A DNA stretch of 64,000 bases from Planctomycetota bacterium (GCA_021808105.1 JAKBCC010000001.1:32753-96752), one strand, 5' to 3'. Counted from the stretch's first letter, positions 5,799-63,113 are shown. Made by a program: numbers and translations. The notes: generated from the letters alone by a model not told the origin.

Positions 5799-6080
5799 TT
5801 CTCCATCACCCCCAGGGAGCCTGTCCAAGCCATGGCCGGGATTGCGATTACTCGGACGCGCGACTAAGCGCCTCCAACCGGTTGCGTTCCACCACCGGCA
5901 TAGCCGGCGGCTTGTGCGATATTTTTTCGGCCCGGTGTGGGGAGCGACCGGCGTGCCATGCCTGCTATCGTTATTTGCCAAGCTTATTTACTAAGCCGTG
6001 CTTTTTATTCGGGCGGTGGTTATTATACTACGCCGTGTCATCCATTGGGCGTCAATCGCCGGAATTCATGAGGAGCCATT

Positions 6081-35411: not shown

Positions 35412-36170
35412 TTGCGGGGTCTTGAACTTAGGATGCGTATTGACATGATTACCTGTTCGGTCGGCGGCGGCGACAAATTTACTGAAACAGTTGTGCTGTG
35501 GGATTCTCTGGCATCTCAATGGCAGCTGGCTCCAAACGAGGGGGCATACGTCGACAGGCAGCAGGGTACGTCGTGCGCCAATTGCGGATCAAACCTGCGT
35601 TCAATCGCATTGGCTGACGCCATTCGCAGCGCAGTAGGAACGGATTTGACGCTGCAGGCCTATGTAACGCAACCCGAGGCACGCACCTTGTCCGTTCTGG
35701 AAATCAACGAGGCGGGGCACCTAAGCCCGACGCTACGGCAACTGACTGGGCATGTGTTGGCCGCGTACCCCGCTGTCGACACGCACGCACTGCCAGTAAC
35801 ACCTTTGATATCGTGGTTCATTCTGACACTTTAGAGCATGTAACAAACCCGGTACATGCCCTTATGGAGTGCCACCGGGTGCTCCGCCCGTGCGGCTGGC
35901 TGTGCTTCACAGTGCCAACGATCATTGGACGCCTTTCCCGCAGCCGCAGCGGCTTGGCGAAAACTTTTCATGGCACCCCCCCATACAGCGACCGATGATT
36001 TCGTGGTTCATACCGAATTTGGTTCCGACATGTGGACGTATGTTCTTCAGGCGGCCTTTTCTTCCGTCACCGTCAACACCGTTGACTTTCCCGCAGCCCT
36101 CGCCCTGTCCGCACGAAAAAGCGGCCCCCAGTGTTGTTCGGATGCCGCGTCATGGCTGTGGCCGCAATAA
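35412..36170 (+). pseudogene. frameshifted Zn-ribbon class I methyltransferase (decayed paralog of the 46679 gene)
   Basis: The motifs FDIVVHSDTLEHV..RVLRPCGWLCFTVP are split across at least two reading frames (35412-35834, 35813-35998, 35856-36170). Confidence 0.5.
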
Positions 36171-36611: not shown

Positions 36612-36877
36612 GCCGCAAAAGCTGGGAGAAGCGAAACGGGGACGCAGCTAGTTTTTGAGGATAGCAAGACAAAACGGCCGCCCGAATTTGGCATTGGCAG
36701 CATCCGAAGCAGCGTCCGAAGCTTGAGACCATTGGTTATAGCTTCTACACTTTCACGAATTATTTTGGCTTCAACTACGCCATATTTTTTAGCGGTGGTT
36801 AAAAACAATCCGTTCAATGGCTGAAATTCCACCACACAGTGGTTGATATTCAACCGGTTAACGGATATAATTCCAGC

Positions 36878-38125
36878 ATGTTGGTTCAACGATACATAAC
36901 ACCGCTTGTCGAAATCGCACTGCTTGATACACCTGCCGTTTATATCCAAGGGCCTCGGCAGGCCGGCAAAAGTACGCTTGTGCAAATGCTTTCGGAAAAG
37001 ACGGGGCGGCGTTATCTGTCGCTTGATGATGCTGCCACGCTCGCCGCTGCCCGTACTGATCCGGGCGGCTTTCTCGCACGATTTGACGGGCCGATCGCGA
37101 TTGACGAAGTGCAGGCGGCACCCGAACTGGGCCGCGCGATTAAAGCCGCTATAGACCGGGACCGCAAACCGGGGAAATTTTTGCTGACCGGCTCTGCCGG
37201 CATCATGGTTATTCCTGAGCTGGCTTTACAGCTTGTGGGGCGGATGGAACTGCTTACTCTCTGGCCGTTGGCGCAACGCGAAATCACCGGCACGCACGGT
37301 TCGATGATTGATGAACTATTGGCCGAAGCGTTTGTCGGTCTGCCCATTAACAGCGAAGGGCGGCAAAAGTTGCTTTCACGCCTGATCGCCGGCGGTTATC
37401 CCGAGCCGCTGCAACGCACAACTCCGGAATCAAAATCGCGGTGGTTTGATTCCTATGAAACCACCATTCTCCAGCGCGATGTGCGTGACTTGGCCAATGT
37501 GGAAAACCTGGGCATATTTCCCAACCTGCTGCGACTGCTGGCAGGCCGCGACATGTCCATTCTGAATGTTGCCGATGTGGCGCGAACGCTTTCACTTCCA
37601 CAAACTACGGTGAAGCGATATTTGGCGGTACTGTCCGGTTTGTTTTTGACCGGTTCGCTTCCCGCCTGGCACCGCAATGCCACAGCACGGCTGGCCAAAG
37701 CCCCGAAGGCCATGCTGGTAGATACCGGCTTGGCCTGTCACCTTATGGATTTGGATATGGATCGGCTGGAGGCCAATTCGACCATGGCCGGTCACCTGGT
37801 GGAAAATCTGGCGGCCATGGAACTGATCAAGCAGGCGGGATGGGCAAAAACAAGATCTGAATTTTTTCATTTTCGCACGCTTTCAGGGGCAGAAGTGGAC
37901 CTCGTGCTGGAAGATCGCCGGGGAAGGGTTGTCGGCATAGAGGTAAAATTTTCCCAGACCCTTTCCAAAACAGATTTGCGCGGTATGGAGGTACTTCGCC
38001 AAGCCGCCGGCCAAAATTTTTTACGCGGCATTATTTTTTACAGCGGTCATGAAACGCTTCCCTTCGGTCCGGATTGCTGGGCGGTTCCGATAGATGCACT
38101 TTGGAACGGCGTTAAATCATCCTGA
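36878..38125 (+). CDS. AAA_14/DUF4143-type ATPase
   Basis: Walker A GPRQAGKSTL and C-terminal SGAEVDLVLE..VVGIEVKFS motif. Paralog of 47683-48954. Confidence 0.8.
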   Translation: MLVQRYITPLVEIALLDTPAVYIQGPRQAGKSTLVQMLSEKTGRRYLSLDDAATLAAARTDPGGFLARFDGPIAIDEVQAAPELGRAIKAAIDRDRKPGKFLLTGSAGIMVIPELALQLVGRMELLTLWPLAQREITGTHGSMIDELLAEAFVGLPINSEGRQKLLSRLIAGGYPEPLQRTTPESKSRWFDSYETTILQRDVRDLANVENLGIFPNLLRLLAGRDMSILNVADVARTLSLPQTTVKRYLAVLSGLFLTGSLPAWHRNATARLAKAPKAMLVDTGLACHLMDLDMDRLEANSTMAGHLVENLAAMELIKQAGWAKTRSEFFHFRTLSGAEVDLVLEDRRGRVVGIEVKFSQTLSKTDLRGMEVLRQAAGQNFLRGIIFYSGHETLPFGPDCWAVPIDALWNGVKSS

Positions 38126-38167: not shown

Positions 38168-38515
38168 CTATTGATCAAGAATTACGACGATCGCGTCAAG
38201 GAGTCGCTGCGCGTGAATCGACGCGACCTGCCAGAGAACATCCGGATTCACGCTTCCATAGTCGTGGGCGAGGATATGGCGAGTTGCAATAATTTTTCGC
38301 CATTCAATTTCAGGGTGGACTTTCTGGAATTGGGGCGACACCGCTCTGGCGGCTTCGCCGATCGTTTCGATCCAGCGCTCAACTGCGGCGCGGAATACCT
38401 CATCATCATCCAAAGCCACTCTTTCTCGTCCCACAGCGTTACGAATAAGCTGCGTGACCGCGTGCCGCATGTCTTCGAGTCGAGCGCGATCATAAACATC
38501 AGGACTCATAGACAA
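38168..38515 (-). CDS. hepT: HepT (HEPN/DUF86) toxin
   Basis: Rx4HxY HEPN motif in RHILAHDY. Overlaps the mntA stop by 17 nt. Confidence 0.8.
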   Translation of the reverse strand: MSMSPDVYDRARLEDMRHAVTQLIRNAVGRERVALDDDEVFRAAVERWIETIGEAARAVSPQFQKVHPEIEWRKIIATRHILAHDYGSVNPDVLWQVASIHAQRLLDAIVVILDQ

Positions 38516-38807
38516 CCCTTTGTGTCCTTAGAATTTCCTGGCGGCGATAGGGATTGGTAATAAACCTGTCCTCCACAAGATCAACCGCACGACCCGCGAA
38601 AACCGCGGATGCCTCCTCCATCATTTCAGGAAGATTGTCAAAGGTCATGGCTCCGCCATGATCAAATTCCAATAACAGATCCACATCGCTGGTCGGCGAG
38701 AAGTCGTTGCGTAATATCGACCCGAAAACAGACAATTTACGAATCTTCCAGTGCCGACAATAGGTTGCAATCTTTTGCGTATCCACCGGTATTGCAAATG
38801 TCTCCAC
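38499..38807 (-). CDS. mntA: MntA minimal nucleotidyltransferase antitoxin
   Basis: GSx9DxD motif in GSILRNDFSPTSDVDLLLEF. Confidence 0.8.
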   Translation of the reverse strand: METFAIPVDTQKIATYCRHWKIRKLSVFGSILRNDFSPTSDVDLLLEFDHGGAMTFDNLPEMMEEASAVFAGRAVDLVEDRFITNPYRRQEILRTQRVVYES

Positions 38808-43790: not shown

Positions 43791-44117
43791 TCAAAAATTC
43801 AGATTCCTGCCGACAGAGCGGCAAGCTGGTGTCGCACTGCACTGTAACAGTTCGGCAAGTGGTGGGATGCGAAGCTAAAAGCCGCTTCATTCCCGGTTTA
43901 TCAACGTATGCGAATGGGGGCCACCACTTATGCCTCACGGCATCTACTGTTATTTTAGCCCATGTTGCCCCTCGGGTCAAATTGTCAAAGTATTTTTTGA
44001 CCTTTGGTTTTTACCGGCCTAAGATGCAGCAGGGGACACAACGTTTTTCGCATTTGGCAGGTGCCTTTGGCGCCGGATTCGGTGGCGCTGATGTCTTTCT
44101 AACATAGTGGGGTCATC

Positions 44118-46547
44118 ATGTATAAGTGTGCGCCAACATTTTCTTCAGCGCGGCGTGGTAAAGCCAAGGTAGTGCTCTTGTTGCTTTCAGCCTTCGGAGT
44201 CATCAGTGCTGGGGGGCAATCGGGTTTGGTCATTGCCAATACCGTAACAGTAAATGGGTCACCGGGCACCAGCACAACCACGAGCGGTGGCCAAGCCATC
44301 GCCGTTGCCAACGCGACTACCGACGCTAGCCATACCGCCCACGCGTATGGCGGTAGCGCTTTCGATTCGGGCGCTGGCGGTTACGCCCATGCCACAGCGA
44401 CCGATGGAGCCACCGGCAGTTTCTCGCCCAGTGCCGGTTCCTATACTGTGTCGCTGGGCGGCGCTGCCGGCATTGATGCCAGTAATACCGGTGCCTCGGC
44501 GGTAAGCACATCCAGCACCAGCAATAGTGCGGGTAAGGCCACTGCCACAGGTTATTCTCGTGGCGGAAGCGGATCGGCCAGTTACGGTCCGTCGAATGTA
44601 TCGGCAGCCAACGGCGGCAATGGCGGTTCGAGTAATACCAGTGCCACGGCCAGCACGTCCGGCGCCAATGGCGCTTATGCCACGGCGGTGGCGCAAGGCG
44701 GTGCAGGCGGTCTGTTTGATTCCATCTTCACACCGCCGGCCAATAGCGGACTCGGTGGCAGTTCACAAGCGTCGGCCAGCGCAACGGCTGCCGGCAGTGG
44801 AACCGCACAAGTGTACGGCATATCTTACGGCGGTTCGGGCGGCACGTTTGCCGGTTCTAATGGTAATGGTGTCGGTGGCAACGGCGGAGCGGGTTCCCTG
44901 GGAACGGTTTCAGCGAGTTCCAATGGTGGTTATGTGTTTGTCGAAGGCGCGGAAATCGGTGGTGCCGGTGGCGGCTTTTCACACGGGGGCGGCACCGTTA
45001 CCGGCGGCGGTGGTGCCGACGTCAGCCTCACCAACGCGGTCAGTGGGACCACGTCAGGACATTCGGAACTCATCCAAATTTCTGAGGGGGGTGCCGGCGG
45101 CGGCGGATCAGGTTCAGGTACCGCCGGGGCGGCGGGGGCGGGGTATTCTTCGCTTACCAGCAATATCACCAGCGGCGCAGTGAACAACGCCGGCATTGAA
45201 GCTTACGCCTCCGGCGGTGCCGGTGGATACTTTGATGCGCTAAGCGGAACACACGGTACCGGTTCCACCGGAGGTGCGGCAACCTCGGTGGGCACGGGAG
45301 CCAATAATACTGGAGCTTCAGGGGTAGCGGCGTATTCGATCGCCGGTATCGGGGGTCTGGGCGTGACGGGAGCTACCAGCGGCATGGGCGGCGCGGCCAA
45401 CGCCACGGCCACATCAAGCACCACGCTGGTCGGCGGCGCGGTTACCGCTATTGGTTATGCCGTAGGCGGCAATGGCGGAGGGACAGCCGCTACATCCAGC
45501 GATGCGGCCGGCGGAAGTGCGATCGCTAAAGCCACCGCCAATCTTGCCGGCGGTTATGTCAACGCTTACGCCCAGGCCGTCGGTGGTACACCCGGTAATG
45601 GCACCGCGGGCGTAGATAATTCCGCTACCGCTCTGGCGGACGCTTATGCCAAGGGGGCCGGGGCCGGGGCGGTCAACGCCCAAGCCGGCATGATGGATAG
45701 CTACAATGGCCAGAGTGCTAATATTCAATCCAATTTTCCGGTTACCCTTGACGGCCCGCAACTGCACACCGAATCCTATATCAATGCCGGACAGGCCCCT
45801 CGTGCTATTTCCGCTGCGGCTGGTGCCAACGTTGCCACGCTGTTAACGCAGGATCCCACCAATGCCCTGGTCACCAGTGTGTTGGCGGCCAATCCACAGG
45901 CCGCACAGAACTGGAACATCGGCGGTGCCAATACCTCACAACCTGCCAGCAGCGTCGCGGATTATAATCAGATTTCATTTATCTCCGCAGGCACATCCTC
46001 CGGTACTTCACAGTATCACAGTTCCCTGACGGTCACGACAGCCAACGTTAATCTCAGTACCTCCCATGATGCCATCATGAGCTTTCTGGGCGGTACATCC
46101 ACGGGTAGCGGCTCGGTGATCATTCAGGTCACCAATCTGGAGAATCACAATACGCTGTTACTGAATAACGGCTACGGAACCTTAGCCCTGGCAGATGCGG
46201 CCACCTCCAACACCACCTTTGATCTGGGCAGCATTTCCAGTCTGGTAAGCTCCAGTAATGCTCTAAGCCTCCAATTTGACATGTATCTATTTACCACCGA
46301 CGCCAGCGCGGGCTTCCAGACCAGCTTTATCTTCGGCAGCAGCGTGATGGGATCAGGCCCCTCGGGCGGCCCCTTGCTGTCAACGACGAATTTCATGCGT
46401 TCCTCCGCCACGCGGTTCAGGGCCATGGAGGCGATACGCAGCGCGCCTGTTCCGGAGCCTGCAGCGCTGGTGCTTTTGGCCTTGGGTACTCTGGGATTGC
46501 TGCTAAAACCACGGCGCAGCGCGGCCCGCGTTAGAACACCATGGTGA
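44118..46547 (+). CDS. PEP-CTERM sorting domain secreted protein, Gly/Ser/Ala/Thr-rich
   Basis: N-terminal signal peptide. About 600 aa of low-complexity GGxG/SGS repeats. C-terminal VPEPAALVLLALGTLGLLLKPRRSA (PEP motif, TM helix, basic cluster). Confidence 0.85.
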   Translation: MYKCAPTFSSARRGKAKVVLLLLSAFGVISAGGQSGLVIANTVTVNGSPGTSTTTSGGQAIAVANATTDASHTAHAYGGSAFDSGAGGYAHATATDGATGSFSPSAGSYTVSLGGAAGIDASNTGASAVSTSSTSNSAGKATATGYSRGGSGSASYGPSNVSAANGGNGGSSNTSATASTSGANGAYATAVAQGGAGGLFDSIFTPPANSGLGGSSQASASATAAGSGTAQVYGISYGGSGGTFAGSNGNGVGGNGGAGSLGTVSASSNGGYVFVEGAEIGGAGGGFSHGGGTVTGGGGADVSLTNAVSGTTSGHSELIQISEGGAGGGGSGSGTAGAAGAGYSSLTSNITSGAVNNAGIEAYASGGAGGYFDALSGTHGTGSTGGAATSVGTGANNTGASGVAAYSIAGIGGLGVTGATSGMGGAANATATSSTTLVGGAVTAIGYAVGGNGGGTAATSSDAAGGSAIAKATANLAGGYVNAYAQAVGGTPGNGTAGVDNSATALADAYAKGAGAGAVNAQAGMMDSYNGQSANIQSNFPVTLDGPQLHTESYINAGQAPRAISAAAGANVATLLTQDPTNALVTSVLAANPQAAQNWNIGGANTSQPASSVADYNQISFISAGTSSGTSQYHSSLTVTTANVNLSTSHDAIMSFLGGTSTGSGSVIIQVTNLENHNTLLLNNGYGTLALADAATSNTTFDLGSISSLVSSSNALSLQFDMYLFTTDASAGFQTSFIFGSSVMGSGPSGGPLLSTTNFMRSSATRFRAMEAIRSAPVPEPAALVLLALGTLGLLLKPRRSAARVRTPW

Positions 46548-46613
46548 TAGCCCGGTGATGGGTTGGCGATACTGGATCAACCACCGGATTAACCATCCGG
46601 TGCGCGCGGAGGA
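46544..46613 (+). repeat. intergenic structured repeat, copy 1 (GGTGATARCCCGGTG...ATCAACCACCGGATTAAYCATCCGGTG)
   Basis: About 88% identical to 47520-47589. Contains a conserved CCGGAT-N5-ATCCGG hairpin. Starts at the stop codon of the PEP-CTERM gene. Confidence 0.75.
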
Positions 46614-46678
46614 ATTATTTTAGGAATTATTTTTGTGCTGTTCTTAAACGGAACTCACGTTAGGATAAGCCGTATTAT

Positions 46679-47422
46679 GTGCAGTGGAGGCAACGTATGG
46701 CGTTATTCAGCAATCCGGGATATTGCAACATTTGCATGGAAGACACCACATTTACCGCTGAGCAGACGTGGTTGCGCGATCACTATTTCTGTCAGCGTTG
46801 CCGCACGATTCCGCGTCAACGGGCACTCGTTGAAGTATTAACAACTTTGCGCCCGGCCTGGCGGACACTGACCATTCACGAAAGTTCGCCGTCGATCGGC
46901 TTTTTTTTCAAACAGTGCCCCGCCTACAGCGCGTCCCAGTTCTTCGAGGATGTTCGACCAGGCGAGTATCGCAATGGATTCCGCTGCGAAAATCTTGAGC
47001 ACATGACCATCGCTTCCGAATCGTTTGATATTTTCATCACACAAGATGTTTTTGAGCATGTATTCAATCCCGAACTGGCCATGCCGGAGATCATGCGCGT
47101 GCTGCGCCCGGGCGGCATTCATATTTTCACAGCACCGAAACACAAAACGCTGCTTAAGTCCGTTCGTCGCGCGCGCCTGAACAACGGTGCCGTTGAGCAT
47201 CTCCTGGAACCTGCCTACCATGGCAATCCCATTGGCGATGGGCGCAGCCTGGTCACATTTGATTATGGCGCGGATTTTGACGATCTCATTCAGTTGTGGT
47301 CCGCCTACCGGACCAGCAATTACATGATCCGCAACCGCCATCTGGGCATTGACGGCGAATTTCTTGATGTGTTTGTCACGATCAAAGACACGGCCAATTA
47401 TGTCCCCGGCGAAAATTGCTGA
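46679..47422 (+). CDS. class I SAM-dependent methyltransferase with N-terminal Zn-ribbon
   Basis: CNIC...CQRC zinc ribbon. FDIFITQDVFEHV and RVLRPGGIHIF motifs. Confidence 0.8.
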   Translation: MQWRQRMALFSNPGYCNICMEDTTFTAEQTWLRDHYFCQRCRTIPRQRALVEVLTTLRPAWRTLTIHESSPSIGFFFKQCPAYSASQFFEDVRPGEYRNGFRCENLEHMTIASESFDIFITQDVFEHVFNPELAMPEIMRVLRPGGIHIFTAPKHKTLLKSVRRARLNNGAVEHLLEPAYHGNPIGDGRSLVTFDYGADFDDLIQLWSAYRTSNYMIRNRHLGIDGEFLDVFVTIKDTANYVPGENC

Positions 47423-47519
47423 CTTCTTCTCCCATTCACGTCGGAAAGGCTCCTCGGGTGCATGGTATCATTGTGTGTTGCGGGATCCATTCGGCTGGCG
47501 GGCGACAGGCCGCTTTTGC

Positions 47520-47589
47520 GGTGATAACCCGGTGGTTGGTTGGCGGCACTGGATCAACCACCGGATTAATCATCCGGTGCTCGCGGGGA
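47520..47589 (+). repeat. intergenic structured repeat, copy 2, with a partial third copy at 47607-47629
   Basis: Includes a 10 bp inverted repeat CCGGTGGTTG/CAACCACCGG plus the CCGGATTAATCATCCGG hairpin. Confidence 0.75.
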
Positions 47590-47682
47590 GTGTCGCGTAG
47601 AAAACCGTGGCGATAAGCCGGTGGTGAGGCTCATTTTATTGCGGTTGTGGGCGGCAGCGGAGTGCCGGCATAATTACGTTAC

Positions 47683-48954
47683 CTAAACACTGTCCCATGG
47701 CAGGCAGTAATCATTTTCGGATACCTGCTCCATGCGTTCCACCGGTGCAATAATTAATCCGGGGGCAATTTTTAGATCAGGATAGTTTTCGCGAAAGGAG
47801 GCGATCCCCCTTGTATCCTTCCGCGATGGCTGTGAAGATAATTTGACCTCGATCGGATAAAACCTGCCGTCACGCTCCAGCAACACATCAACTTCAGCAC
47901 CGCTGTGGCTTCGCCAATGGTAGATGTTCGGCGGGGTTGAGAGCGTGGCGGAAAGTTTTCGAATTTCACCCGCGACGGCGGTTTCAAAAAGCGCCCCCGT
48001 CAACGGATGGCCGGATAATGTCGATGCGGCTGAAATTTTCTGGAGACTGCAGGCGAATCCGGTATCGGCGAGGTATCCTTTGGGTTTGCCGCTGATTCTT
48101 TTGATCGTGTTGCCGTGATAAGCCGGCGTCTCAAAACATTGGAATGTCGCGCGCAGTGTCGCCAGCCAGCGCTGGGCGGTCTGCGGCGTCATGCCCAGAT
48201 CACGTCCAAGCTGCGAGTGATTGATCTCCTGGGCGGTTAATGCGGCGGCAAGTTGGACAAACCGTCCGAATTGCTGCCAGTCGGCTAAGTCTGTTAATAA
48301 GCGAACATCTCGTTCTATATAGGTTCGCAGATAGGCGCGGTAAAACTCAGGTATCCACGTGTGCTCCAAAGTATCGGCCTCAGGCAAAAATCCGCGCCAT
48401 AACTGCTCATTGACGGTTCTGACCATCCCAAGCCGGTTTGGTTGTGCGGCAACAAATCGCTCCGGATCATTCAGATAACGCTGCACCCAATGGTCTTCGA
48501 CTCCGGCGTCGGCGATTTCGGCAAGACAAAAACCTTCCATATCCAGAAACGCCGCACGCCCGGCCAGAGACTCGCTGGCGGATTTCAGAACAGACCACTG
48601 CTGCGATCCGGTAAGAACGTACATCCCCGCATTTTCATTGGCTGATGTGCTATTGGAATTAGCAGATGCCCGGGCCAGATCAACGCGACGCTTTATGGCT
48701 CCCACAAGTTCCGGAGCGTATTGGATTTCGTCCAAGATTAACGGCGGGGGATGATTATTTAAAAATAAATCCGGGTCACGCCGCGCATTGCCGACATCCA
48801 CCGCCGGATCGAATACCACCGTATCCCAACCGGCCAATTCGTTACGCAAAAGCGTGCTTTTTCCCACCTGGCGGCTGCCGCTGACGATAACCACGGAAAA
48901 GCGATGAATCATTCGCTGGAGCTTGGAGGCGAGGATGCGACGTTTATAGATCAT
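47683..48954 (-). CDS. AAA_14/DUF4143-type ATPase (paralog)
   Basis: Walker A GSRQVGKSTL. C-terminal SGAEVDVLLERDGRFYPIEVKLS. Confidence 0.8.
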   Translation of the reverse strand: MIYKRRILASKLQRMIHRFSVVIVSGSRQVGKSTLLRNELAGWDTVVFDPAVDVGNARRDPDLFLNNHPPPLILDEIQYAPELVGAIKRRVDLARASANSNSTSANENAGMYVLTGSQQWSVLKSASESLAGRAAFLDMEGFCLAEIADAGVEDHWVQRYLNDPERFVAAQPNRLGMVRTVNEQLWRGFLPEADTLEHTWIPEFYRAYLRTYIERDVRLLTDLADWQQFGRFVQLAAALTAQEINHSQLGRDLGMTPQTAQRWLATLRATFQCFETPAYHGNTIKRISGKPKGYLADTGFACSLQKISAASTLSGHPLTGALFETAVAGEIRKLSATLSTPPNIYHWRSHSGAEVDVLLERDGRFYPIEVKLSSQPSRKDTRGIASFRENYPDLKIAPGLIIAPVERMEQVSENDYCLPWDSV

Positions 48955-49061
48955 CCTTGAATTTTAATGACATAATCATTAAAAATCAAGTAAATAACGA
49001 TTCCTGTTCGACTTGTTTTTTGCTGATACGTATTTTTATGCTTAACTGAATTTTACCCCCA

Positions 49062-51281
49062 TCACGCCCGCGGGCAGCGGCGACGGGGAGGAATTGCGCC
49101 CGTGGCGCACTGGGCGTCGGCGACGGTTTGCACAACTATCGGCGGCTCGCCGGCCCGGCCACGAAACCAGCGGTTTAATAGGCGAATGTTGCGCCAGCGG
49201 CTGGCCGCTCTTTTTGCCGCCACGCCGGTATACAGGCGTTGATTTTCCAGCATCACCGGGATCAAATCCCGCAGTTCGGGATGTATTGCATTGAGGTAGG
49301 GCTGAATACTGCAGGCGCGGTTGGCGTTCCAGTTTTGATCCGTGCTGCGTGAAACGCTGGTTTTGCTGATGCGGTAAAACAGCAGCGATTGGGGAATCAG
49401 TTCCAGCTTATGCCCGGCCAGAACCGCCCGCGCAAAAAATTCCCAGTCTTCCTGATACCCGCTGAAGCGCTCTGCAAAACCGCCCAGCGATTCAAACATA
49501 CTTCTCTTCATCAGGCAGTGCACATCGCCAAAGACGTTGATAAATGCCCCAGCCGCAGCCGCCGGTCCCAAGGGCACCCACATGGGAAAAGGTACGCTGG
49601 GAGCAGGCGGGGACTGGCCTTCAAAAAGTGTCATTGTGGAAGTTACCACGTCGGCATGGGTTCTTTGCGCCACTTGCATGGCGCAGGCCAGCCAGTGCGG
49701 TGTTGCAATATTATCATCATCCATAAAGGCCAGATAATCGCCGCGGGCCACTCGGGCGGCGTTATTTCGCGCCCGCCACATGTATTGATTGTCCTGCCGG
49801 ATAATGCGCCACCCGCGCGAGGCAAATTCCTTTTCCAATGTTTTTAAAAGTGCCTGGGCCTCCGGTGATGGGCTGCCGTCATCAATCAGGATAACTTCAT
49901 AATTCCGGTAGCTTTGCGATTTAAGAGAATCCACAGCCTGCCGCAGTGTTTCCGGGCGATTGTAATGCACCAGACATACGCTGATCATGGGCATTGCGGC
50001 ATCGGCGGGAGGCGTATCGTCTGCGCCAAGCGGAATCACCGCGTTCCCGCTTGGTGGTGGTTTTGCACATACGAGGGCCTTGATCAGGAGTTGCCACTGT
50101 TCTGCGGTATTGGATGCCTCCAGGTGATAGGCCAATGGACTAATGCCATTTTGAATTGCGGATTGGATCTTCTGCGATAATGCCGGTGCGGTGGGGGTGA
50201 AGCAGAGTTTCTCACACACTTCATTTGTAACAAAATCCCGAATACCGCAGTGCTCCGGAATCAAAACCGGAATGTTGTCCGCCACACAATTTATAAGTAA
50301 TTGCGGTAGGCTTCCGGATCCTGGAGCAAAAATGGCAATGCGACCGGCACCGCGCAGATAGGCCAATTGCCGCTCCAGGTCCGCCTCCGCCAGAATGCTG
50401 AATCTACAGTCTGATCGGCGCAGTGTCTTGCGAACATACCAGTCGCCGGCCAGTTGCCTGACTTCCCCGATTGCACCGATAAAGGTGATCTTTAATTTTT
50501 TACAAAGCGGGGCGGGCAGCATTTTGATGGCATGGCAAAATAATTCCACGCCCTCGGCGGAATCCATTGCACCGGCAAAAACCAGCTCTGCCAGCGGTTG
50601 GGCGGCAGGGCCGGCCGGCAGGGGGGGCAGTGTTGCCTTTGCATCTTCAGATGGGCTGTATGAGATGGCCCGGGGCGTCGGCAATGGCGGAAGCACGGAA
50701 GTGTTGGCCGGCAAGATCCATCCATCGCTTTTAAGCCAGTCGCGTAATCCGGAGGTGCACACCACGGCCGCATCAGCCCGACGCACCATGTCGCGTTCCA
50801 TAAACATGACTTCAAGGGTCTCAACACTTGTGGGCATGGATTGCCGGGCGTGGTAGCGCCATTGCGTGGGAGCGGTTAAATACGTGACAAATTGTGTTTT
50901 TTCAAAGGCGATTCCCTGCTGCCGCGCAAGAACTGCGTAATAGGCTATGCCCTGCCAGGCGGGTGAAATCACGCAGTCATACGCAGTGGGGTGAAATTTA
51001 AGCCAGCGGAAAAATTCATAGCTGCGTCTGCGAAACCAGCCCCCGATAACCTGCGTTTCTGTAAGCCAGTCAAGCGTTATGACGTGCACGCCGGGCGGCG
51101 TGACCACTCCGGTGCGATGACCATGATCTGATTTTAAGGCCCCATCCCCGGAGATACACAAGGTAACGTCATGGCCGCCCGCAGCTAATACGCTGGCGGC
51201 ATTGATGCACGCCTGTGGGGCGTCATCGGAGTTGGCTCCCGCCGACACTGCGGGTATTGCGATGCAAATTTTTAAGTTCAT
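49062..51281 (-). CDS. two-domain glycosyltransferase (GT4-like N-terminal, GT2 C-terminal)
   Basis: Same architecture as 25584-27887. The GT2 region starts at ISVCLVHYNRPE with DD motifs. Confidence 0.75.
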   Translation of the reverse strand: MNLKICIAIPAVSAGANSDDAPQACINAASVLAAGGHDVTLCISGDGALKSDHGHRTGVVTPPGVHVITLDWLTETQVIGGWFRRRSYEFFRWLKFHPTAYDCVISPAWQGIAYYAVLARQQGIAFEKTQFVTYLTAPTQWRYHARQSMPTSVETLEVMFMERDMVRRADAAVVCTSGLRDWLKSDGWILPANTSVLPPLPTPRAISYSPSEDAKATLPPLPAGPAAQPLAELVFAGAMDSAEGVELFCHAIKMLPAPLCKKLKITFIGAIGEVRQLAGDWYVRKTLRRSDCRFSILAEADLERQLAYLRGAGRIAIFAPGSGSLPQLLINCVADNIPVLIPEHCGIRDFVTNEVCEKLCFTPTAPALSQKIQSAIQNGISPLAYHLEASNTAEQWQLLIKALVCAKPPPSGNAVIPLGADDTPPADAAMPMISVCLVHYNRPETLRQAVDSLKSQSYRNYEVILIDDGSPSPEAQALLKTLEKEFASRGWRIIRQDNQYMWRARNNAARVARGDYLAFMDDDNIATPHWLACAMQVAQRTHADVVTSTMTLFEGQSPPAPSVPFPMWVPLGPAAAAGAFINVFGDVHCLMKRSMFESLGGFAERFSGYQEDWEFFARAVLAGHKLELIPQSLLFYRISKTSVSRSTDQNWNANRACSIQPYLNAIHPELRDLIPVMLENQRLYTGVAAKRAASRWRNIRLLNRWFRGRAGEPPIVVQTVADAQCATGAIPPRRRCPRA

Positions 51282-52824: not shown

Positions 52825-53328
52825 TCAAAACGGGATGTCATCATCCCGAATGGGCGGAGCATCAACTTCCGGCGGCGGTTCGTCCGCTGGGGCGGGCCGG
52901 GCCGGTGCGGTGCGAGCTGCCGGGCGATAGGGCGGCCGAGGGGCCGGGGCACCACCGGATTCATCATCCGGGGCGGCGGAATCACCACCTCCGGCGGGAC
53001 GGCTGTCGATAAATTGGAATCCCTCGATGATCACCCGCATTCGGCTGCGTTTGGTGCCATCCTGGGCTTCCCATTGGTCGAGCTTCAGGCGTCCCTCGAT
53101 GAATACAGGTTTACCCTTGCGGAGGTATTTAGAAAGTGTTTCCGCCTGTCGGCCATAGGAAACACAATCGACAAAGGTGACTTCTTCGCGCGGCTGACCG
53201 TCCTGGCCGTTCCAGCGGCGATTGACGGCCAGGCCCATTTCACAAACGGGCGTCTGGCTGGGGAGAAAGCTTAACTGCGGATCGCGCGTTAAATTACCCA
53301 TCAGAAACACTTTGTTTAAGTTGGCCAT
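52825..53328 (-). CDS. ssb: single-stranded DNA-binding protein
   Basis: OB-fold N-terminus, Gly/Pro-rich linker, C-terminal DDDIPF tail. Confidence 0.9.
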   Translation of the reverse strand: MANLNKVFLMGNLTRDPQLSFLPSQTPVCEMGLAVNRRWNGQDGQPREEVTFVDCVSYGRQAETLSKYLRKGKPVFIEGRLKLDQWEAQDGTKRSRMRVIIEGFQFIDSRPAGGGDSAAPDDESGGAPAPRPPYRPAARTAPARPAPADEPPPEVDAPPIRDDDIPF

Positions 53329-61477: not shown

Positions 61478-62992
61478 TCACACGCCGGCGGCCCGTTGCC
61501 GCACGGTGTGCCAAAGCGCCAGAAGCTCTGTATTATAAAACCATATAGATAAAGCTGTGTAAATCAGTAAGAACGAAACGGTCCCGCATACGATATTCTC
61601 CCATACGGGAAGCGTAATGGGGGCCGCCAGAAGCCTTACACCGATCCACGGTGCGGCCGCGGCCATCGCCATGGCCGCCGGACGCAGAAATAATGCCGCC
61701 ACATCGCCCCAAGTTCCGCCGCCCGGCCCAATGGCTTGTCGCACCAGCAGGGGGGCGGCAACGGCCCAGAAAATACTCACCGCAAGGGCGAGAATCACGG
61801 CACCCCCGGCCCACGCGGCAAACAACGCCAGCGGTAGATACACCAGGGCACTGCCTGTGGCCCAGGCGAGTTGGAATCTGAAGCGGCCTTGCGCCAAAAT
61901 GAAATTCAACGATGGCTCCACCAGTAGCATAAACGCTGCGCCTAACGACAGGACTTCCAGCGGCAGAATCGCCGCGTGCCATTTGTTGCCATAAACCAAT
62001 GTCAGCAGAGGCCGGGCCAGCAGTGATTCCAGCACGCACAGCGGCATACCGGCCAATGCCACAAGGTTGGCAGCCCGGAGAAACGCGGCGGTCTGCCGAT
62101 TGATCTGATTCTCCATGGACGTAAGAGCCGGATACAGCACTCCGGCAACATTGGTCGAAAATACCTGACTGATCTGCGTGGATAAATTGGACGCGAAAAA
62201 ATAATCGCCGACGATTGTCACGGAAGCAAAGGCCCGCAGACACGACATTTCGGCAATTCGGCTTACAGTTTGAAATACTACCGCGCCCATCAGCAGGCCC
62301 GACTTTTCAATCAGGTAAGGCCAGCGGCGAAAGTGTGCATGGAGCTTAATGCGCGTAGGAGCCGCCATCCACAGGGCAATCGCCCGCAGCGCTCCCACCA
62401 CGGGCAGGGGAATGACAAAACTGTAGACTCCCCAGCCCAGCGCCGCCAGCACAATGCTAAGTACCATGGCGATGATGTTATAACCCAGGCCAATCATGGC
62501 CAATTCGCGGAATCGCATATCCTGCATGAGCCGTGCGGTGGGCACCGCGAATAACGCGGTGATGGCGACGCCGGGCGCAATGATGTCCATAATGGGAATT
62601 AACTGCGGCGCGTGAAAGGCCGCCGCTGCGTAGGGTGCCGCCAGCAGCATCAGCAAGCCGGCGGCCATTCCCAGCGCGATTTCCATCCAGAATGCTGGTG
62701 TAGCCCAACGTTTGAAACTTCGCCGCTTTTGCACCAGGATTTGCGGCATGCCGGATTGCCGAAGAATATTAGGAATCGCTGCGGCCGCATACGCCAGCCC
62801 GACCAGCCCGAAATCGTGCGGCACCAGCAGACGCGCCAGAATAATCTGGCCGATGAAACCAAAGCTTTTGGATGCCAGCGTCTGAAAAATCATCCATGCC
62901 ACGCCGCCGAGGCTGCGTCGCGCAATGGGCGAAGCCGTTGCCGGACCGTCGCCAGCGGGGGACTGTGCCTTGTTTTCAGGTGTGTGCATCAC
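61478..62992 (-). CDS. MOP-superfamily polysaccharide flippase (Wzx-like)
   Basis: About 12 to 14 TM helices. N-terminal GFIGQIILARLL resembles PST/Wzx family proteins. Confidence 0.6.
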   Translation of the reverse strand: MMHTPENKAQSPAGDGPATASPIARRSLGGVAWMIFQTLASKSFGFIGQIILARLLVPHDFGLVGLAYAAAAIPNILRQSGMPQILVQKRRSFKRWATPAFWMEIALGMAAGLLMLLAAPYAAAAFHAPQLIPIMDIIAPGVAITALFAVPTARLMQDMRFRELAMIGLGYNIIAMVLSIVLAALGWGVYSFVIPLPVVGALRAIALWMAAPTRIKLHAHFRRWPYLIEKSGLLMGAVVFQTVSRIAEMSCLRAFASVTIVGDYFFASNLSTQISQVFSTNVAGVLYPALTSMENQINRQTAAFLRAANLVALAGMPLCVLESLLARPLLTLVYGNKWHAAILPLEVLSLGAAFMLLVEPSLNFILAQGRFRFQLAWATGSALVYLPLALFAAWAGGAVILALAVSIFWAVAAPLLVRQAIGPGGGTWGDVAALFLRPAAMAMAAAAPWIGVRLLAAPITLPVWENIVCGTVSFLLIYTALSIWFYNTELLALWHTVRQRAAGV

Positions 62993-63113
62993 ATTTCAGA
63001 CCCATCGCAATCCCGGCCATCACTCGGACAGGCTTTTAGTGCTCGCATCGGATAGTATCATAAACCAGTCCGGTTGGCTTGGGGAATTTCCGTGGTATCC
63101 TGCCGATGAAATC

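Follow-up and report, generated by a model that had tools for sequence, protein, structure and literature searches.

The 64,000-nt stretch of Planctomycetota DNA analyzed here (JAKBCC010000001.1:32753-96752 of assembly GCA_021808105.1; hereafter the window) contains a locus of the polysaccharide/PEP-CTERM type, with very large multi-domain glycosyltransferases on either side, in which two copies of a short palindromic repeat flank a methyltransferase (MT) gene. The repeat quite probably belongs to a lineage-specific family similar to the repetitive extragenic palindromic (REP) sequences, the bacterial interspersed mosaic elements (BIMEs) composed of them, and the hairpin-forming REP doublets known as REPINs. 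Its hosts are uncultured Planctomycetota, probably of the class Phycisphaerae. The features around the repeat, in window coordinates and with E-values from a hidden Markov model (HMM) profile of the family where an HMM is named, are as follows.

44118-46547, plus strand: gene for a secreted protein of 809 aa that is rich in Gly, Ser, Thr and Ala and carries a PEP-CTERM sorting motif (PF07589) at its C-terminus.
46528-46609, plus strand: copy 1 of the repeat, a full-length but decayed unit (HMM E 7e-24).
46582-46602, plus strand: right-arm stem-loop of copy 1, CACCGGAT-TAACC-ATCCGGTG, with an 8-bp stem and a 5-nt loop.
46697-47422, plus strand: gene for a class-I S-adenosylmethionine (SAM) methyltransferase, 241 aa in public assemblies (Methyltransf_11, E 1.9e-11).
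47469-47671, no strand assigned: block of 203 nt, present or absent among strains, made up of copy 2, a partial unit and unique flanks.
47515-47586, plus strand: copy 2, a near-master unit (HMM E 5e-24).
47587-47627, plus strand: G-rich linker CGCGGGGAGTGTCGCGTAGAA, then the left arm of a truncated next unit (left-arm HMM E 2.5e-4).
47683-48954, minus strand: gene for an AAA_14/DUF4143 ATPase (Pfam), convergent with the MT gene.

The two copies form a direct repeat of 67 nt (46543-46609 versus 47520-47586), in which 60 of the 67 positions, or 90%, are identical. This agrees with the first-pass annotation of the window, which had noticed near-identical copies on both sides of the MT gene, a partial third copy, and a hairpin whose stem is conserved while its loop differs. 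In particular, the stem CACCGGAT-N5-ATCCGGTG is exact in both copies, and the loops are TAACC in copy 1 and TAATC in copy 2. With up to two mismatches allowed, this hairpin motif occurs three times in the window versus 0.02 occurrences expected by chance, which, together with the identity of the direct repeat, rules out a chance repeat. A blastn comparison of both units with the whole window found only these two full copies, and the family profile, made from 20 members, placed copy 1 at 46528-46609, copy 2 at 47515-47585, and a left-arm fragment, all that there is of the third copy, at 47596-47627, giving a total of 2.3 copies. The third match to the hairpin motif (52951-52973) lies within ssb, the gene for the single-stranded DNA-binding protein SSB (52825-53328, minus strand). 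Its 23 nt, CACCACCGGATTCATCATCCGGGGC (HMM E 1e-5), nearly reproduce the right-arm stem-loop, with the same loop as the copy in locus L022, and are in frame, encoding AAPDDESG in a disordered part of SSB, the Gly/Pro linker. The match may represent a REP singlet that coding DNA tolerates, or may be due to chance.

Copies 1 and 2 differ in their state of preservation. Copy 1 is 87% identical to the family consensus, by which it starts about 17 nt upstream of the TGA codon of the PEP-CTERM gene, so that the last ~6 codons and the stop of this open reading frame (ORF) lie inside the element. The earlier statement that copy 1 begins at the stop codon is thus right in that the element abuts or overlaps it, and places the start too late. 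The long hairpin of copy 1 is no longer stable, its DNA fold (z = -0.7) being not better than that of shuffled sequence. Copy 2 matches the consensus at 96.8% identity and, over 63 nt, the copy in locus L058 of the metagenome-assembled genome JA4.bin8 at 98.4%. It has an intact inner 12-bp stem and right-arm stem-loop, lacks the outermost 5' arm GAGCACCG, and contains the inverted repeat CCGGTGGTTG/CAACCACCGG reported earlier, of 10-14 bp; its fold has z = -2.6 as RNA and -2.05 as DNA. Folding, which had been proposed as a check on the repeat, hence succeeds for copy 2 and for the family consensus (see below) and fails for copy 1. Window positions 47517-47625 align at 82-87% across the unit junctions of a tandem array in locus L041, and therefore copy 2 with the partial unit is the stump of a short tandem (BIME-like) cluster.

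Alignment of 20 family copies, many of them picked by a pattern that contains the right stem, yields the consensus CATAGAGCACCGTGGTGATAACCCGGTGGTTGGTTGGCGRCACTGGATCAACCACCGGATTAAYCATCCGGTGCTC. The unit has a length of ~75 nt and consists of two inverted stem-loop modules, making an imperfect palindrome of ~75-90 nt. The left module, (A/G)TAG-AGCACCGTGG-TGATAA-CCCGGTGGTTGG, is followed by a center of ~12 nt, GGCGRCACTGGAT, and then by the inverted right module, CAACCACCGGAT-N5-ATCCGGTGCT-C(TAC). In single-stranded form, be it DNA or RNA, a complete unit is able to form a hairpin of ~27 bp, whose 27 pairs (alignment columns 9-38 and 51-80) are 92% paired across the 20 copies, and the consensus has DNA folding energies of -24.9 and -25.6 kcal/mol on the two strands (z about -6.3, and -6.4 for the former). 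Taken alone, the left arm forms a 7-bp stem with one bulge (93% paired), and the right arm an 8-bp stem around a varying 5-nt loop; this right stem is paired in 20 of 20 aligned copies, an invariance partly forced by its presence in the search pattern. RNAalifold favors a third arrangement, which is neither the long hairpin nor the pair of hairpins. Clusters are built of head-to-tail units with a period of ~90 nt, separated by a G-rich linker of ~18 nt (sCGGGGmG..CGyG).

Copies found by the profile only (L041a, L110) vary in the right stem, up to its deletion or replacement. Of two such copies in L110 (11205-11289 and 7951-8011), one has an unrelated palindrome, CCCGGCGCGCCGGG, in place of the right stem CAACCACCGG and the other has this stem deleted, and both keep the left arm, the center and the 3' end. 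The left half and the center seem to be more constrained than the right stem.

The pattern CAACCACCGGAT-N5-ATCCGGTG, scanned over one genome per species, occurs at no fewer than 104 loci, and most among the matches listed are tRNA genes (Arg-TCT, Asp-GTC and Trp-CCA of Acidobacteriota and Planctomycetota) with the motif on the reverse strand. The whole unit is common to the window, the metagenome-assembled genome of Planctomycetota bacterium JA4.bin8 (at least 15 matches on at least 13 contigs) and Phycisphaerae bacterium KM4311-08 (at least one match). In JA4.bin8, sequence and profile searches together found at least 20 copies, spread over 15 sampled loci, a density that is not genome-wide, as these loci (8 kb each) were picked by the motif itself. 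The window organism is a relative of JA4.bin8, with 87% nucleotide identity over 363 nt near rplI, the gene for ribosomal protein L9. A stricter pattern gave two contigs of metagenome Ga0080006, one of which (L110) carries five copies within its 14.5 kb. Viral contigs gave no match in two pattern scans, and a viral origin was rejected.

All copies not nested in another element lie between ORFs. They include a solo copy (L042), a tandem array of 5.7 units between convergent genes (L041, 3800-4313), and a copy antisense to both flanking genes (L110, 6035-6143); copies are seen in either orientation relative to the neighboring genes, and also upstream of genes. The repeat is thus a dispersed intergenic hairpin family with solo, clustered and nested copies, a conserved master sequence and strain-level turnover, which upholds the earlier description of a REP/MITE-like element (a MITE being a miniature transposable element with inverted repeats) with members in several related genomes.

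In a sister species (L112-L115, GCA_021798635.1), the orthologous locus is ~80% identical in nucleotide sequence and agrees with the window in gene order (glycosyltransferase, PEP-CTERM, MT, glycosyltransferase), with a PEP-CTERM protein of 807 aa. One unit occupies there the exact site of copy 1, from the stop codon on (GCTAATAGAGCACCG...), and no unit was found in this locus downstream of the MT gene. Copy 1 is 78.6% identical to its L115 ortholog, and the adjoining spacer 66%. Directly 3' of copy 1 and upstream of the MT gene, the window has a perfect 12-nt tandem duplication, AGGAATTATTTT twice (46610-46633), where L115 has a single GCGAATTATTTTAG.

Among close strains it is the 203-nt block with copy 2 that varies: it is present in the window, L105, L107 and L108, and absent from L106 and L109, which come from independent samples and assemblies. 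These contigs are 99.7-99.9% identical to the window, with the exception of 550 nt upstream of the gap in L106 (98.2%). The junction in the empty allele reads GGGTGCATGGTAT/AATTACG (GGTAT/AATTACG). The block shows no terminal inverted repeats or pairing of its ends, and its inner flanks, possibly decayed units, match nothing else in the loci sampled. Homologous coding DNA of JA4.bin8 and the window is 87% identical, yet copy 2 is 97-98% identical to JA4.bin8 copies. The near-master state of copy 2 and its absence from the sister species would speak more for a gain of the block than for its loss. Copies 1 and 2 stem from separate events at neighboring intergenic sites, copy 1 being the old and decaying one. 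The persistence of the master sequence across species while old copies drift points to a replicating repeat population, not a site-specific regulatory element. Two insertion sites of unequal age lie on either side of the MT gene, which is itself a bystander.

In JA4.bin8, seven repeat copies are nested in a 375-nt MITE with terminal inverted repeats of ~32 bp (GGAGCCTGTCCGAGTAATCGCCGGG...). The MITE has at least eight copies in this genome (L051 7297-7666, L046, L060, L035, L075, L028, L032, and L041 1737-2017), which are 91-97% identical, with the terminal repeat GGAGCCTGTCCGAGTAATCGCCGGGTTGCGA and a possible TA/CTAG target duplication. The eighth copy is without the palindrome module of ~100 nt; comparison of the seven filled copies with the empty one therefore indicates that the palindrome was captured by another mobile element and amplified with it. 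In the window the MITE is represented by only two solo end fragments, one of which abuts the start of the minus-strand gene 61478-62992:

5815-5858, minus strand: solo end fragment of the MITE.
62991-63040, plus strand: solo end fragment of the MITE.

REPs are hairpins of 21-65 nt, single or clustered, with an inverted pair as the basic unit of a cluster (PMC6006769). Like the REP/BIME sequences of Enterobacteria and the REPINs of Pseudomonas, which are mobilized by REP-associated tyrosine transposases (RAYTs), the family described here consists of short imperfect palindromes in intergenic DNA, and its units are both stem-loop palindromes and inverted doublets able to form a long hairpin. Here, too, the copies are solo or arranged in tandem clusters with short linkers, the dispersed copies show a conserved master, some of them orthologous and others polymorphic, and a purine-TAG motif stands 2 nt 5' of the stem. 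The inverted-doublet layout, this motif and the tandem clusters are the reasons why REP-like mobility may be inferred. REP elements are processed as single-stranded hairpins by HUH transposases of the Y1 type (PMC6006769; PMC3337134). The present family multiplies within genomes and settles in intergenic DNA, and its spread would most likely pass through a single-stranded hairpin intermediate on which a HUH Y1 transposase acts in trans; candidate enzymes would be a RAYT or a TnpA-Y1 of class 3. The clusters would probably grow and shrink by slippage or unequal recombination, and hairpins that are transcribed may have a side effect on how the PEP-CTERM and MT transcripts end at their 3' side.

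Comparable systems exist in the same phylum-level host range. GTAG-tagged REPs have been reported from the superphylum of Planctomycetes, Verrucomicrobia and Chlamydiae (PVC), to which Planctomycetes belong (Di Nocera et al. 2013, PMC3733652). In addition, atypical hairpins flank the class 3 Y1 genes, whose hosts are mainly Planctomycetes and Acidobacteria (Quentin et al. 2018, PMC6006769), and can reach ~600 copies in the acidobacterium Solibacter usitatus (PMC6006769). Compared by description only, both resemble the present family in being stem-loops with a 5' tetranucleotide foot that form dimers and clusters, and high copy numbers have been described for them. The class 3 foot is CnGA, whereas the four nucleotides before the left stem of the family are mostly TAGA, with CAGA or CGGA in 4 of 20 copies.

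Several features set the family apart from REP/REPIN systems or weigh against this assignment. First, tblastn detected no Y1/RAYT gene in the window, L001-L109 or L110-L111 (the Y1 query scored 63 bits against PF01797, which validated it), and no HUH...Y motif match was found in the window or in the family-lineage loci; the family-lineage DNA covered by these searches amounts to only ~270 kb. Second, the GT(A/G)G tag is inconsistent: on the left arm it is mostly ATAG, with GTAG in 1 of 20 copies and CAG, TTAG and TTG also occurring, while the other arm lacks a tag in many copies. On the minus strand of the right arm GTAG/GTGG appears in the MITE-borne copies only, and the foot of this arm in array and window copies is GGGAG or GCGAG (CCGGGAG / CGCGAG). 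Third, conservation in the 12-nt center and in the right stem's 5' flank, TGGATCAAC, equals that in the stems, both arms look like a tRNA, and the host belongs to Planctomycetota, not Proteobacteria. Fourth, no covariation above shuffle controls was detected among the 20 copies for either the long-hairpin or the two-hairpin model; the copies are too alike for covariation to be informative, and the pairing is therefore a property of a young consensus, not evidence of a selected RNA fold.

The comparisons of empty and filled sites are also imperfect. The empty MITE copy is not clean, as 7 nt are replaced and the segment that it lacks does not include all of the extended palindrome. The 203-nt block has ~50 nt of unique sequence on each side of its repeat units, which is odd for transposition of unit length; the sister sequence agrees with the empty allele only ~2 nt past the junction, and its downstream gene differs; either polarity of the block, insertion or deletion, would fit these comparisons. 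Neither of the two empty/filled comparisons shows a target-site duplication. Finally, the 64 kb of the window hold only 2.3 copies. The element is best filed as REP/BIME-like; its behavior is that of a REPIN, its membership in a RAYT system being unproven.

The family is also similar to MITEs and to nested or composite small repeats (Correia/NEMIS, RPE, ERIC, RUP): these are likewise non-autonomous intergenic elements of ~70-400 nt with inverted ends, able to supply stop codons or extend ORFs, as copy 1 does, and in JA4.bin8 the family is physically nested in a true MITE. The family differs from them in that neither empty/filled comparison revealed a target-site duplication, that head-to-tail arrays are unusual for cut-and-paste MITEs, and that no parent insertion sequence is known.

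The tRNA genes among the pattern matches bear on the origin of the repeat. Read on the minus strand, the right arm (TAGAGCACCGGATGGTTAATCCGGTGGTTG) is identical at 27 of 30 positions to positions 20-49 of the JA4.bin8 tRNA-Asp(GTC) (L098), a segment that runs from the D-stem's 3' strand through the anticodon arm to the variable loop, and the three mismatches are all found in the loop of the anticodon arm. Local alignment scores 24, versus 7.6 +/- 1.3 for shuffled elements (maximum 14) and 7-11 for unrelated tRNAs. The left arm matches the same segment at 23 of 30 positions. By a rough estimate that allows for the shared hairpin shape and for the post-hoc notice, the chance probability of the match is ~1e-3 to 1e-6. 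The arm is also common to tRNA-Asp of other Planctomycetota and to tRNA-Arg(TCT) of Planctomycetota and Acidobacteriota. In addition, tRNAs of several phyla share an identical 25-nt anticodon-arm sequence, CACCGGAT-N5-ATCCGGTGGTTG (L001-L104), namely tRNA-Arg(TCT) of many Acidobacteriota and Planctomycetota, tRNA-Asp(GTC) of Planctomycetota and Lentisphaerae, and tRNA-Trp(CCA) of Aerophobetes.

No tRNA was called at the copies by ARAGORN or Rfam. The units have neither acceptor nor T arm and hence no cloverleaf, and their loops vary among copies and are without U33. As the likeness ends at the variable loop and no tRNA is called, it speaks for tRNA origin, not tRNA function. We suggest that the family may well have arisen from a host tRNA gene, with arms probably copied from tRNA-Asp(GTC) between the D-stem and the variable loop. 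The D-loop/anticodon region of a tRNA naturally has the order (G/A/T)TAG, two nucleotides (AG), stem-loop, a shape that HUH Y1 transposases recognize in REPs; recruitment of such a fragment is plausible because its shape is that of a REP with its guide tetranucleotide. A limited literature search found no report of a tRNA-derived REP. The eukaryotic tRNA-derived short interspersed nuclear elements (SINEs) are comparable as dispersed non-autonomous repeats whose core was apparently copied from a host tRNA gene. Unlike them, the family has only 30 nt of tRNA (D-stem, anticodon arm and variable loop), duplicated in inverted orientation, is without the RNA polymerase III promoter logic and without a poly(A) tail or a tail derived from long interspersed elements (LINEs), and presumably moves at the DNA level. 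The resemblance to SINEs, on this comparison, would thus concern origin only and not mechanism.

Among the alternatives, the one that best survives, though unlikely, is a host cis-acting RNA element at gene ends, which would act in termination, in protection of the mRNA 3' end, or by damping upstream translation at the stop codon. It would account for the contact of copy 1 with the PEP-CTERM stop in two species that are ~80% identical, for the several other copies at 0-30 nt past stop codons (such as position 11205 of L110 and the L041 array, which follows a stop by 29 nt), for the stable hairpin, and for the better preservation of the family sequence than of the adjoining intergenic DNA. However, the first-pass proposal of terminator repeats is not supported: the hairpins in the copies are followed by GCGCGCGG or GCTCGCGG, without a T-run, and none of the six terminator-like sites predicted in 46300-47900 coincides with either copy. 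Placement also argues against such an element, with the antisense copy in L110 and with copies upstream of genes, in arrays and in the MITE. Moreover, copy 1 has lost its long stem, the copy-2 block is dispensable among strains, compensatory changes do not exceed controls, and Rfam gives no match. A cis-RNA effect is compatible with a REP-like family as a side effect, but by itself leaves the spread of the family unexplained. Known RNA families were rejected as well, since Rfam, at permissive as well as gathering thresholds, gave only chance-level snoRNA matches (E 0.5-5.6) in 44000-50000 and nothing except true tRNAs on the L041 array, the L051 MITE, L110 and L115.

Very improbable is that the units are tRNA-like RNA genes or decoys, transcribed mimics of the tRNA-Asp anticodon arm that titrate a modifying enzyme or an anticodon nuclease. 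The near-identity to the host tRNA-Asp, the tandem arrays of structured units, and a HepT/MNT toxin-antitoxin pair 9 kb away in the window could be read in this way; but the tRNA-like part is just 30 nt, its loop varies freely, no promoter was detected, and the second arm is simply an inverted partner.

Least probable of all are att-like recombination sites that bound a mobile MT cassette, with a site-specific recombinase acting on the anticodon-arm-like core. Integrases act on tRNA genes, and the integron acts on attC. Two direct repeats do flank a single gene, and the 8-bp inverted arms around a variable 5-nt spacer, almost identical to a tRNA anticodon arm, resemble a tyrosine-recombinase core; against this, the sister species keeps the MT gene and copy 1 without copy 2, strains without the copy-2 block retain the MT gene, no MT-less variant occurs among the retrieved contigs, no integrase lies within ±10 kb (gene/Pfam table of L105), most family copies, being in arrays or nested in the MITE, flank no cassette, and the tRNA-like part runs from the D-stem to the variable loop and is not the 3' half that integrase att sites duplicate. 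An integron attC was rejected on its ends, GAGCACC...GGTGCTC and not RYYYAAC...GTTRRRY, and on the opposite polarity of the inner GGTTG...CAACC.

The presence and absence of copy 2 also argue against the suggestion of the first-pass annotation that the repeats mediated duplication of an MT cassette. The presumed second member lies at 35412-36170 and had been described as a decayed paralog of the same MT. It does encode a class-I SAM methyltransferase whose N-terminus is rich in Cys, but frameshifts have split it over three frames or more, so that it is probably dead; it is located directly downstream of a gene for a 1586-aa fusion of methyltransferase and glycosyltransferase. It is, however, a distant homolog, with 37% amino acid identity to the intact MT over 83 residues (E 5e-10); the 34-39 kb region has no nucleotide similarity to that at 45.5-49.5 kb, and the family profile run on the window found no repeat copy near 35-36 kb. 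Furthermore, MT homologs at 76-80% identity occur in other polysaccharide loci without the repeat.

A second AAA_14/DUF4143 ATPase gene (36839-38125, plus strand) lies in the first of these regions, and its product is 33% identical to that of 47683-48954; with DUF4143 proteins so divergent and no DNA similarity, a segmental duplication of the two regions was rejected. Between the first DUF4143 gene and the gene for a 1599-aa glycosyltransferase is a toxin-antitoxin pair of an MNT protein (NTP_transf_2/Polbeta) and a HepT-like protein (~38168-38807, minus strand), annotated from the Pfam table of the identical contig L105.

As for the genes next to the repeat, the PF07589 match of the PEP-CTERM protein (residues 777-800) scores 19.4 bits, slightly under the cut-off of 20.7. 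The longest ORF of the MT gene starts at 46679, and the MT has 2420 homologs at E<=1e-20, typically located in polysaccharide loci; homologs of the MT carry Phycisphaerae labels. The copy-2 block sits between the 3' ends of the MT and DUF4143 ATPase genes. The sister species has a DUF302 gene instead of the DUF4143 ATPase gene downstream of MT, so that the locus is variable at this position independently of the repeat.

The present analysis adds one REP/BIME-like family to a kind of repeat that is known, but barely described in this phylum, and corrects the tempting reading of the two copies as boundaries of a methyltransferase cassette that is mobile or was duplicated. Where REP families come from is an open question, on which the close match of the arms to tRNA-Asp has a bearing; if the derivation is true, this would be the first bacterial element of the REP/REPIN type shown to be tRNA-derived, and would provide a concrete route to new REP families. 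The old orthologous copy, the near-master polymorphic copy, the tandem arrays and the capture by a MITE make up a natural time series, which could serve for work on REPIN-like population dynamics beyond the Proteobacteria and for tracing the mobilizing enzyme, possibly one of the poorly understood class 3 Y1 transposases.

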